Shown here: piece by piece, positions 27,764 through 53,424 of the stretch
Position numbering within the stretch: position 1 is the first letter of the stretch
Layout of the letters: every line of letters starts with the position of its first letter
Assembly (NCBI GenBank): GCA_951406725.2
Contig: OX597842.1
Location: 9,052,001-9,116,000, forward strand
From: Octopus vulgaris
Taxonomy: Eukaryota
Reading direction: 5' to 3'
DNA length: 64,000 nucleotides
Position numbers and translations under genes: made by a program
The notes under the pieces: model-generated
What the model was told of the DNA's origin: nothing
The model's database searches: none
The model's input: the letters and a program-made list of their open reading frames with translations, nothing else

Positions 27764-27874
27764 CCTGAAGTCAATCCCTACGGTCGATATAAACGACCCC
27801 GAGAGGAAGGTGCCATCTTTAAACTGAACCAACAAGCATGTCTTGCCTACTCCGCTGTCTCCTAACAACATCAC
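27764..27874 (-). CDS. RAB26: Alternative P-loop/switch-I exon [38 protein letters not shown]
   Basis: 111 nt, phase 0/0; acceptor ttgctttcCAG (27875-27877), donor GTAAGT (27763-27758); canonical Rab26/37 sequence. Confidence 0.95.
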
Positions 27875-29062
27875 CTGGAAAGCAAGGGCAGATAACCGCA
27901 GCGTACAGTGGAGTATACAGTGATGATGGGTTAGTGTAGAACAGAAAAGTTGCCTGTGAATGTGTCCACTCTCAGAGCTTCATTTTTCTTGTTTTTTTTT
28001 ACTATTCTACTAAAATATATACACCCTCTGCATTGTCTAGCTCTATGTTGAGCTGTGTCCACTCCCTGGCTATTGTACTGTTACTACAACAGCCTCTGCC
28101 CTTCAATACTACTACTACTACTGCTGCTGTTTCTACTGCTACTGCTGCTGCTGCTACTACTACAACTACACTATTACTACTACTGTGGCTGCTACTACTA
28201 CAACTACACTATTACAACTACTGTGGTTGCTACTACTACAACTACACTATTACTACTACTGTGGCTGCTACTACTACTGCTGCTGCTACTACTGCTGCTG
28301 CTGCTACTACTCCTACTACTGCTACTAGCATCACCATCACTTCCATTATTACCACTATGGTCACCTCCATGACTACTACTACTACTACTACTACTACTAC
28401 TACTACTACTACAGTTTGTACTCTTTTGATGTAAAATATTCCACTTGATCTGCTAAACAGACGAAACCATGTCTCCCTTCTGTTATTTATACTTACAGTA
28501 CATCCCCTATTCTAATCTGAAATTGTTCCCCTCCCCTCCATAAACCCATAGTTTGACTGTGTCCACTCTTTGTCAACATCCTACTACAACATCTTCTGCT
28601 CCGTTTAAAATACCAATGCTTCATTAGTATTCTGTCTTACTGAAAATAGCTACTCTAACCATGCATATTCACATATATATACATACATGTATGTATATAT
28701 ATCAATCTCTCTCTATATATATATATATACATATATACATATATACATACATATGTATATATATATATGAAAAGTACATAGTGTTTTTACTTATTATATT
28801 ATATATTTATCATTCATTTTATACTTTTTGAGATTTAAAAAAAATTTATATATATATATTATTTATTATTTATGTTTTGGTCTATGTCTATCACTGTTTG
28901 AGTTGCATAATATTGGTTTTATCTCTAATTCATATTTTATATATATATATATATATATATATATATATAGCTCAAATTTACAGAAAAGAAAAGATGAAGG
29001 CAGGTGTAGGAGCAACAAGCAGGTGTATTAATTTAATGCTCAGGGAAAAATAAGGAAAATTT

Positions 29063-29098
29063 TTTTGACATTTCAAGCCTATGCTCTTTGTCAGAAAA
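29063..29098 (-). ncRNA. Decayed minimal hammerhead motif in a short interspersed repeat (relatives near 75-110 and 38578-38612)
   Basis: tttt-CTGACAA-a-gagc(atag)gctt-GAAATGTC-aaaa; differs from CTGACGA...gctcGAAACGTC only at CpG positions. Confidence 0.4.
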
Positions 29099-29225
29099 GG
29101 ATTAAGAGGGAAAGAATGGAGAGAGAATGAAAATAACGGAGAGAGAGAAAAAAAACGTGCAGAGTTCAATGGTCCAACATGGCAAGATGATATATATATA
29201 TATATATATATATATATATTATATA

Positions 29226-29838
29226 TACATGGTCTGATCAATAAGTATTTACTGTTGCCATAGTAACGAAGCTAAAGGATGGAGAGTGAAGCTGCTTGGC
29301 ACAGATTGACCTTAAACTCTGCTGTGCATGGGCAATAAGTTTTAATCTTCTAGCTCACTTCTGCTGTTTACAGCAATGCTTGGAAGGAAGATGTGTAGCG
29401 TGTGATCATCACATTGACCATGATAGAGAGAGTTGAGCAGAGAATCTGCATCAAATTTTGCCAAAAGCTTGGTGATATCTGCTCAAGGAGGGGGCCTATG
29501 TAAAGTTTTCAAAAAGTTTTCATTGCTCTTGATACAATCAAAGAGATCTTGTGCAACTGAAACCCCGAGTGTCCTTTTGGTCAGCTGAAAGCAGTTTTGG
29601 CACAAACTTGACAGACATGTGTCTCATACCCAAATCTTCAGTGATAATAGACTGAACTGAACCGTAACTAATCTGCGCATCCTCTGATAACTTATGGATG
29701 GTGATTTGACAATTTCCCCTCACAGCTGCATGCTCATCTGTGATGTTTTTCTCAGTTCTACTGGTTGTGAGTCTCCCAGAATGTTCATCAATATCGATTT
29801 TTTTTTGGCCATCTTGGAAACATCTGAACCCCTCGTAC
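29226..29838. mobile_element. Mariner transposase remnant with internal inversion
   Basis: Plus strand EQRICIKFCQKLG, then minus strand DEHSGRLTTS...LGMRHMSVKFVPKLLS. Confidence 0.7.
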
Positions 29839-50379: not shown

Positions 50380-51308
50380 GACAAAATATCCCTATCTTGC
50401 CCAGGATATTAATCGTCTGGAAGCCGTTCAGCGACATGCAACCAAAAGAATACCCTCCATCAGGCATTTGCCATATTCTGAACACCTTACTTCCCTGGGC
50501 ACAGATACATTGCAACTCTGACGTCTGGCAGCTGACTTGGCAGATACCCATAAAATTATTAACCATCTTACAAACAATAACTCTGAGCACCTTTTCAAAC
50601 TCCACCCATCTAACACCCGTGGACATGTTTACAAAGTCAGAAAACAGCACAGCTCCCATGACTTTCGGAAACATTTTTTCACGCTGAGAGTTGCTGAAGC
50701 ATGGAACAAACTGCTGGCATCAGTTGTTAGTTGTCGGATCACTGCATCCTTCAAAACTTCCATGCTTCCTGAGAGATTCGCCAACACTACACCTGATTTT
50801 CTCCCCTCCATACACACACAAGCATGTATCTGACTCATACAATGTTCACTTCCCAGACATTTGTACTTTACTGCATATACTTTATACGAACTTTCTGACA
50901 AGTTGTGGTGCACCTGAGCACTGTATACAATAATTTCATTATTATTATTTAAAAACTCCACCTGTCTAACACCCGTGGACATATTTACAAAGTCAGAAAA
51001 CATCACAGCTCCCATGACTTTCGGAAACAATTTTTCACGCTGAGAGTTGCTGAAGCATGGAACAAACTGCCGGCATCAGTTGTTAGTTGTCGGAGCACTA
51101 CACCCTTCAAAACTTCCATGCTTTCTGAGAGATTTGCCAACACTACACCTGATTTTCTCCCCTCCATACACTCGCAAGCATCTATCTGACTCATACACTG
51201 TTCACTTTCCAGACATTTGTACATTACTGCATATACTTTATACACACTTTCTGACAAGTTATGGTGCACCTGAGCACTGTATACAATAATTTCATTATTA
51301 TTATTATT
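50380..51308 (+). mobile_element. CR1/L2-like LINE 3' end with tandem duplication of the last about 355 bp (another copy at 25490-25780)
   Basis: NTRGHVYKVRK...RKHFFTLRVAEAWNKL; (tta)n tail; units about 50597-50950 and 50955-51308. Confidence 0.8.
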
Positions 51309-51959
51309 TCTATATAAAAGACATTCCTGTAGGAATTGGTGTCTTTGGCACAACACCAGAAATGCTGCCTCAAAGACTGGAAGAGATTGGAACTGAAACA
51401 CACATTGAAAACCTGCAGAAAAGTACCATCTTGTATTGTTGATGTGGCAAGAGTCCTGACACCCCCTGCGAGAATAGACTTGACCGAACGACTATAAATA
51501 TTAGCGGTCTGAGTGAGAAAGGGAGAGAAGGCGTTAATCGCAGGAAGTCGTAAGGTGTCGTTTTGGTGGTTGGTCAGAATATCGTTTCTTGGTTGGTGTA
51601 TAGGTCGTGGAGAGTCTGTTGGATCGTTATGTTGTCGTTAAATATTTTATTGTTACTACAGAGTTATTGTGTAAACAAGTATCATCATAAATAGTGGCGA
51701 TACTACAAGTGACTACGTTGCAGGAATTCTGCTGGAATCCAGGAGAGATTCTTGAAATTTGAGGAGACATGTTATCACCATACATCAAGATAAAATATCT
51801 GCTGACTAAATTAGCATGGCATGCACTAAAGTAATAATAATAACAAAAACAACTACAACAACAACAATAGCAATAATAATGATGATGATGATGATGATGA
51901 TGATGATAATAATAATAATACTAATAATAATGATAATAATGATAATAATAATAATAATA

Positions 51960-52345
51960 AAAATGCTTTCTAATTGATGTATCAATACCAGTAGATGACA
52001 ACATGTCTCTAAAAGAAATGGAGAAACTTTCAAAATACAAAGACCTGGAAATAGAGGTAACTAGAATGTGGAATCTAAAAACAGAAACAATTCCTATCAT
52101 AGTAGGTGCATTAGGAATGATAAAAAAATATTCAGACAAATACATAACAAAAACACCAGGACTTACAAATATATATAACATACAGAAAATTGCACTACTA
52201 GGCACTGCACACATCCTACGCAGAACACTTTCCATACAATAACCATCAGAGCATCACAACAAATCACAGCACATACCCAAGGCACACAGAGCTGCGCTTG
52301 GTAGTGAAGTGAAAGCACAATATAAAAATAAAACTACTGAATAAT
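51960..52345 (+). mobile_element. R4/Dong-like LINE 3' end in (AAT)n
   Basis: IDVSIPVDDNM..KEMEKLSKYKDLEIEV...ALLGTAHILRRTL. Confidence 0.82.
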
Positions 52346-53313
52346 GATAATAATAATAATAATAATAATAATAATAATAATAAATGCCCTGATGCAGTAC
52401 CAGGCAGTGGCTCTCATGGCTTCTGATCTTAACTGATTGGAAGTGTTATCATGTACATTGTTTTGTCTTGGTATAAAAGATGGCCTACAGCAAATATTCT
52501 GCTCAATACCACAGATTTGCTTGTCAGTTGTTTGACCGTAACCAGTTGACCATGTCCCTTAGTAGCTGACAGTATGTGCATCTCTGATCACGAGCAGAAG
52601 TAGTGGGGGAGCATCATAGCCATGTGTTGAGAGGGATTCTTGGAGGTTTGGATAATTCACCTTTGGAAACATGGGTGGTTCATTCAACATCCTTAAACAA
52701 TCCTTATTCAGGGACCTTTTGAGTGGGATGGGCTACTCTACCTGAAGAAACTTCTAACTGGGCCCTACCTGCAAGGTCATGTGCTTTTTATCTTGATATG
52801 AGATCACTATGTCGTGCACATATGGTTGTGATGCATGTGCCTGGTGTACCCTTATCAGATGGGTAGTCATGATGGGTATACTGGGCTTCGTATATTTTAC
52901 CCCAGTGTCACTTTGATGGCATGCACTGCTCTCTCACTCAATAATAATAATAAAAATAATGATAATAATAATAACCTTTTCTACTATAGGCACAAAAGCT
53001 GAAATTTGGGGATTACAGGTACTCAACAGGTATTTATTTTATCGACCCCAAAAGGATGAAAGGCAAAGTCGACCTCAGCAGAATTTGAACTTGGAAGGCA
53101 AGATAGATGAAATGCCGCTAAGCATTTTACACAGTGCAGTAATGATTCTGCCAGTTGAACACCTTAACAACAACAACACCAAAAACAACAACAACAACAA
53201 TAATAATAACAATAATAATAATAATAATAACAACAACAATAACAACAACAACAGCAATACAGGAATAATATCGATAATAATAATAATAGAAATGGATGTC
53301 TGTGTGTCCTTAC

Positions 53314-53424
53314 TGTAAAACCTATGCCAACTGTAGCTGCAAAGGAGCCAGCCTGGAACTTTCCTTGGTCAAACTGGACAAGCAAGGATGTCTTGCCAAC
53401 ACCGCTGTCTCCGACCAGGATTGT
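53314..53424 (-). CDS. RAB37: Alternative P-loop/switch-I exon [38 protein letters not shown]
   Basis: 111 nt, phase 0/0; acceptor ttattacAG (53425-53426) and donor GTAAGG (53313-53308); GDSGVGKT P-loop. Confidence 0.92.

Follow-up and report, generated by a model that had tools for sequence, protein, structure and literature searches.

How many distinct GTPases can be encoded by one Rab gene? This question is raised by a 64,000-nucleotide (nt) stretch of Octopus vulgaris DNA (contig OX597842.1, positions 9,052,001 to 9,116,000; hereafter the window), in which two 111-nt exons, A and B, each encode a P-loop and switch I. The analysis reported here makes it very probable that one Rab26/37 gene carries two duplicated exon pairs, A/B for the P-loop and switch I and D1/D2 for switch II, which likely serve as interchangeable modules altering regulator and effector binding. 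The second pair also lies in the window, and it was outside the claims of an initial annotation of this DNA.

The P-loop exons of the window were first located by a six-frame motif scan, and the exon search was widened by 100 kilobases (kb) on each side (264 kb in total). The gene spans approximately 105 kb of the minus strand, of which the window (1..64000) covers the middle part, and its exons follow one another in the order 1a, A, 1b, B, C, D1, D2 and four shared last coding exons:

Exon 1a, G000:C29:9145493-9145612 (outside the window), minus strand: ATG-bearing first exon, giving the N-terminus that precedes A.
Exon A, 53314..53424, minus strand: alternative P-loop/switch-I exon, 111 nt, phase 0, in which Gly replaces the RabF1 Asp.
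Exon 1b, 35807..35959, minus strand: coding part of the ATG-bearing first exon used with B (putative promoter).
Exon B, 27764..27874, minus strand: canonical P-loop/switch-I exon, 111 nt, phase 0.
Exon C, 18512..18553, minus strand: shared interswitch exon, 42 nt, one copy.
Exon D1, 12307..12373, minus strand: alternative switch-II exon of mollusc/annelid type, 67 nt, phase 0 to 1, with Arg at Rab8a position 75.
Exon D2, 1501..1567, minus strand: switch-II exon of chordate/arthropod type, 67 nt, phase 0 to 1.
Last coding exons, G000:C29, 9046101-9046153, 9044399-9044521, 9042463-9042539 and 9040499-9040601 (outside the window), minus strand: shared by all forms.

The locus is the single octopus Rab26/37 gene. 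Every exon of P0115, a protein listed by NCBI under Octopus vulgaris and O. sinensis, was recovered at full identity within the 264 kb, where C and the set of last exons occur once each. None of the 57 matches of the full protein in the genome marked a second Rab26/37 locus, several high-identity exons being found together only here. The closest solved structure is that of Rab-26 (2g6b, expect value (E) 8.7e-78; Rab8A, E 2.9e-55), and the switch-I region of Rab26/37 is one residue longer (37 vs 36 residues). The nucleotide-binding motifs are complete, with G1 and the switch-I Thr in both A and B, G3 in both D1 and D2, and G4/G5 in the shared exons, which also encode the C-terminal double Cys. 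A look-up in the ESM Atlas returned generic Ras clusters only.

That these exons belong together is indicated by all six O. sinensis RefSeq isoforms (6/6), which could be rebuilt letter for letter from the exons of the locus as 1a-A-C-D2, 1a-A-C-D1, 1b-B-C-D2, 1b-B-C-D1 and two forms skipping both A and B; these isoforms are automatic models and not independent proof of splicing. The splicing of A to C, as supposed in the initial annotation, was borne out by RNA contigs. In two of four sequencing runs (from two studies), contigs span the whole of A, end to end, and their loose ends, when matched to the genome, correspond to the last part of exon 1a on one side and the first part of exon C on the other. 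The runs were guessed, not recorded, to be RNA; the contigs were read as spliced RNA because their ends stop exactly at exon edges and continue into neighbouring exons.

Exons A and B proved to be as initially annotated, i.e. two 111-nt phase-0 exons of the minus strand with AG acceptors and GT donors. They agree at 24 of 37 residues and at 72 of the 111 bases, and for each of them human Rab-26 is the top match in solved structures (A, E 2.9e-9; B, E 2.6e-16). When the 2.8-Gb genome was scanned with A, B was the best other match (E 1.9e-7), while the remaining 15 of 17 matches had E values of at least 0.013; B being the sole strong match, the likeness of the two exons is not due to chance. The claimed replacement of Asp by Gly in the RabF1 motif of A is likewise real, since this position, which is position 44 of Rab1b, Rab8a and Ypt1 (numbered from full-length Ypt1 and Rab7 chains), is Gly in 49 and Ser in three of 52 distinct A-type exons and Asp in every one of 70 distinct B-type exons. 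The motif with its conserved Asp is thus present in 0/52 A and 70/70 B exons, whereas the G1 Gly-Lys-Thr and the switch-I Thr are invariant in all 52 A exons. Fixed differences between the types include Ser/Cys after the P-loop, Gly or Ser vs Asp in RabF1, and Thr or Met vs Arg at the exon end. Exon B (27874-27764) additionally carries a change of the octopus lineage, with Gln at position 17 where other molluscs have Arg.

The human RAB37 alternative isoform named in the initial annotation exists, being listed as event 171 in the supplement of PMC8373072, and A therefore has the vertebrate counterpart that the initial annotation supposed. Octopus and human exons agree at 34/37 residues for A and 31/37 for B by eye, and the same values were obtained by script from a gibbon record. 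When 50 exon rows from vertebrates, arthropods, molluscs and annelids were placed in a tree (37 columns, with little resolved inside groups), the 22 A rows and 28 B rows fell on opposite sides of one branch, which has a support of 100/100 and is present in 100% of 200 bootstrap trees, so that exons cluster by type and not by species. A lies ahead of B in 111 of 111 records with both exons, and models from cat, starling and two wasps contain a first-exon-like stretch between A and B, like octopus exon 1b. The split by type, the common order and the intervening stretch together indicate that the layout is ancestral to bilaterians. The proposal that it predates the protostome/deuterostome split is thus correct, but this age had already been published (PMC8373072, PMC9741552, accessible sections). 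As reported there, the human event resembles that of the octopus in having two 111-nt exons of 37 residues and an N-terminus for each isoform, and it is dated to Bilateria; human and fly are given in those sections, not molluscs, and a single RAB37 event is described. The further claim that A has been kept almost unchanged fits A (34/37 residues shared with the gibbon) only slightly better than it fits B (31/37). Mean identities to octopus over the 111 records are 33.3 for A and 31.3 for B, in a sample (the 120 top hits out of 727) selected for resemblance to A, which inflates the conservation of A. Eight vertebrate records named RAB26 (P0239, P0241, P0244-P0246, P0253, P0259 and P0261) were of B type only, with no search aimed at A. 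From these sequences, A appears to have survived in RAB37 but to have disappeared from RAB26.

In the second pair, D1/D2, the octopus copies are alike at 54 of 67 bases and differ at 4 of 22 residues (positions 73, 75, 76 and 82 in Rab8a numbering, by alignment). Inclusion of both exons leads to a stop at codon 142 and of neither to a stop at codon 112, while either alone reproduces the annotated proteins; since both or neither breaks the frame, a choice of one of the two would be enforced, and transcripts with the wrong choice would likely be removed by nonsense-mediated decay. The distribution of the pair was assessed in the best 120 of 6,409 hits, with species names entered by hand; echinoderms, cnidarians, brachiopods and nematodes were absent from the named records. 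Of the 39 mollusc and annelid species named in this sample, at least 29 have D1, at least 21 have D2 and at least 11 have both, and all four combinations of A/B with D1/D2 occur in at least three sampled species (octopus, a mussel and a chiton). None of the 132 chordate and arthropod rows of the sample contained D1. Same-species D1 and D2 forms are identical downstream in five sets, and they are therefore isoforms and not paralogues; D1-bearing isoforms were already present in RefSeq models. Furthermore, continuous open reading frames on 1-2.6-kb Logan contigs of relatives (P0114, P0122, P0184 and P0164), which we read as spliced RNA, carry A+D1, A+D2 and B+D1. For the annelids, one model each of Owenia (D1) and Capitella (D2) suggests that the pair may be present there, and a tree of the downstream exons did not resolve this group. 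On sequence comparison, the D1/D2 duplication appears to be at least as old as the mollusc ancestor and possibly as old as the mollusc-annelid ancestor. A literature search, from whose coverage subscription journals were mostly absent, found no paper on a switch-II pair of mollusc Rab26/37.

Whether the two copies of the D exon also differ in function bears on the best-surviving alternative, in which A/B is functional while D1/D2 is a nearly neutral duplicate doing the same job in both copies. The few residue differences agree with such a duplicate, as do the variation among species, in either type, of the positions equal to Rab8a 73, 76 and 82 and the ten of 39 named species of the sample in which only D2 was seen. 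However, the copies are told apart by position 75, where D1 has Arg or Lys in 47 named rows (from chiton, bivalves, gastropods, cephalopods and one annelid) and D2 has His or Asn, and both copies have been retained since the chiton-cephalopod split; near neutrality is consequently regarded as improbable, albeit the most serious competitor of a functional D1/D2 choice. Within the octopus lineage, D2 has acquired Asn instead of His and D1 carries a Gly shared with cuttlefish. In a Mytilus edulis model (P0149), D1 and part of D2 stand in a row via a shifted acceptor, which is probably a prediction artefact but displays the order D1 then D2 in a bivalve.

As had been annotated, a separate ATG-bearing exon (1b, 35959-35807) sits between A and B. 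It has no AG ahead of its ATG, provides the N-terminus of the annotated O. sinensis isoforms X1, X2, X5 and X6, and was recovered by a donor/ATG scan, whereas tblastn with the N-termini of other molluscs missed it; the octopus 1b N-terminus differs from the usual mollusc one. Among the records examined, the end of a 1a-like N-terminus precedes 107 of 158 A exons and 1 of 199 B exons, while a 1b-like end precedes 66 of the 199 B exons. The ATG-bearing first exons and these N-terminus classes point to two putative promoters, one upstream of 1a and one upstream of 1b. Oysters, mussels and scallops have very short starts before A (13 records) and several differing N-termini stand before B in bivalve and gastropod records; some molluscs may thus have more than two starts. 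Promoter choice alone is insufficient, since B also has to be left out of the upstream transcript. A search for intron pairing that could enforce the exon choice found only dispersed repeats in both orientations (around B, 24 inverted vs 34 direct).

The four forms would thus arise as follows. A start upstream of 1a would yield a transcript in which 1a is joined to A and B is skipped, while a downstream start would join 1b to B, and either transcript would then take D1 or D2. The nucleotide-binding core would be common to all four forms and the switch-I/switch-II surface would vary, this being the face that, according to the accessible text of PMC5902227, is used by almost all Rab partners. 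The largest effect would likely be at the Asp lost from A. In Rab1, the D44N substitution is reported to abolish GDI binding and to leave the protein mainly membrane-bound and still prenylated (PMC3295573; bioRxiv 10.1101/287516), while D44 of Rab8a forms a salt bridge with K149 of RILPL2 (PMC7139218); these statements are taken from parts of the respective papers. As A lacks the equivalent Asp, A forms are predicted to make weaker contacts with GDI and RILP-family proteins and to stay longer on membranes, and GDI resistance of the A form is, by this analogy, a guess. Rab1 D44N shares with A the loss of the same Asp, yet it is an engineered Asn in Rab1, whereas A carries a natural Gly in Rab26/37 together with 12 further differences from B. 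D1/D2 would likely fine-tune the choice of effector, guanine nucleotide exchange factor or GTPase-activating protein. A predicted fold of the A+D1 form was poor (mean predicted local distance difference test score 60.9 with a 20-row alignment; residues 44-54 and 65-77 under 50) and matched Rab26 best at a root-mean-square deviation of 7.5; it had no B-form control, and no conclusion was drawn from it.

Several points weigh against this model of four exclusive forms with altered partners. Two of the four runs gave nothing on exon A, a null that can be false, and reads cover A only, the octopus joints 1b-B, B-C, C-D1 and C-D2 resting on gene models and on proteins from assembled contigs. The promoters are putative, being deduced from ATG-bearing first exons. 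Moreover, A is followed directly by B, in frame, in 98 of 158 A-bearing records, from a search that favours two-copy records, and the exclusion of A and B may therefore be leaky. Lastly, the D44 position is occupied by Ala in proteins of the Rab5 family, which nevertheless undergo GDI cycling; this makes the GDI prediction less secure.

The in-frame A-B joints also allow for an explanation in which the A form, instead of being a working GTPase with other partners, is a regulatory isoform that does not cycle or does not fold, acting as a decoy or spliced in as an extension at the N-terminus of the B form. A 1a-A-B-C-D2 reading frame is indeed open to the natural stop, and annotated isoforms exist that skip both A and B. 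Against this, the nucleotide-binding residues of A are all invariant, A is joined directly to C in both octopus contigs that cover it (2/2) and in 31 records, and human peptides are reported for both regions (supplement of PMC9741552, accessible part), rendering a decoy or extension role for A very unlikely. As regards skipping, P0262 and P0264 (O. sinensis) join 35959-35807 to 18553-18512, resulting in an in-frame protein without a P-loop, and similar skips are found in records from a bat (P0136) and a sea slug (P0173). Finally, that A/B or D1/D2 represent two tandem paralogous genes, or that one of the copies is a pseudo-exon or stems from misassembly, might be suspected from exons lying 11-26 kb apart in repeat-rich introns, but is effectively ruled out by the single C exon and last-exon set, the RNA joint of A to C, the isoform reconstruction, the differences between copies (39/111 bases for A/B and 13/67 for D1/D2, with open frames) and the finding of the same pairs in other species.

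One gene with two interchangeable pairs is thus the reading retained, and what sets the octopus gene apart from known systems is the D1/D2 switch-II pair beside a RAB37-type A/B layout. The closest parallel to D1/D2 is RAB6A/RAB6A' (event 172 in the supplement of PMC8373072), also a duplicated and alternatively used switch-II exon of a Rab; as tabulated in the part available, however, it belongs to another Rab subfamily, has a 35-residue exon, is dated to Vertebrata and has no switch-I pair. D1/D2 is a duplication of a 22-residue exon that is independent of RAB6A/RAB6A'. The published RAB37 event is among those with a Drosophila orthologue, and its differing residues map to a surface patch (PMC8373072, section 17). 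It is paired with fly Rab26 and tissue-specific in nervous tissue by proteomics (supplement of PMC9741552), and a set of RAB37 transcripts is reported to be high in cerebellum (PMC9714508); all three statements derive from sections of these sources. The accessible accounts of the event do not discuss the D44 position, nothing on A/B isoforms or D44 was found in the available text of PMC9813115 (fly Rab26) or PMC5902221, and no passage on D44N was found in that of PMC2120023. Judging from primers, two functional RAB37 papers (PMC12495445 and PMC4773767, in part) used the B form.

The mollusc-wide D1/D2 duplication renders both halves of the partner-facing surface modular in one gene, and the combination of A/B with D1/D2 constitutes a natural two-by-two experiment on Rab specificity. 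The loss from exon A of the Asp on which GDI binding by Rab1 depends offers a concrete prediction for the nervous-tissue RAB37 isoform. More speculatively, and with considerable doubt, molluscs and probably annelids might possess a combinatorial Rab, in which independent choice of switch I and switch II gives four GTPases per gene that each have their own partner sets, and the A forms, from octopus to human cerebellum, might be natural GDI-resistant, membrane-resident Rabs that have been overlooked in RAB37 work.

The introns of the window contain many dispersed repeats (143 inverted pairs) and microsatellites, including an element of 600-760 bp in three copies of 92-95% identity (20251-21013, 40024-40615 and 52214-52975). 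The long open frames in the window lie mostly within such repeat-rich stretches.

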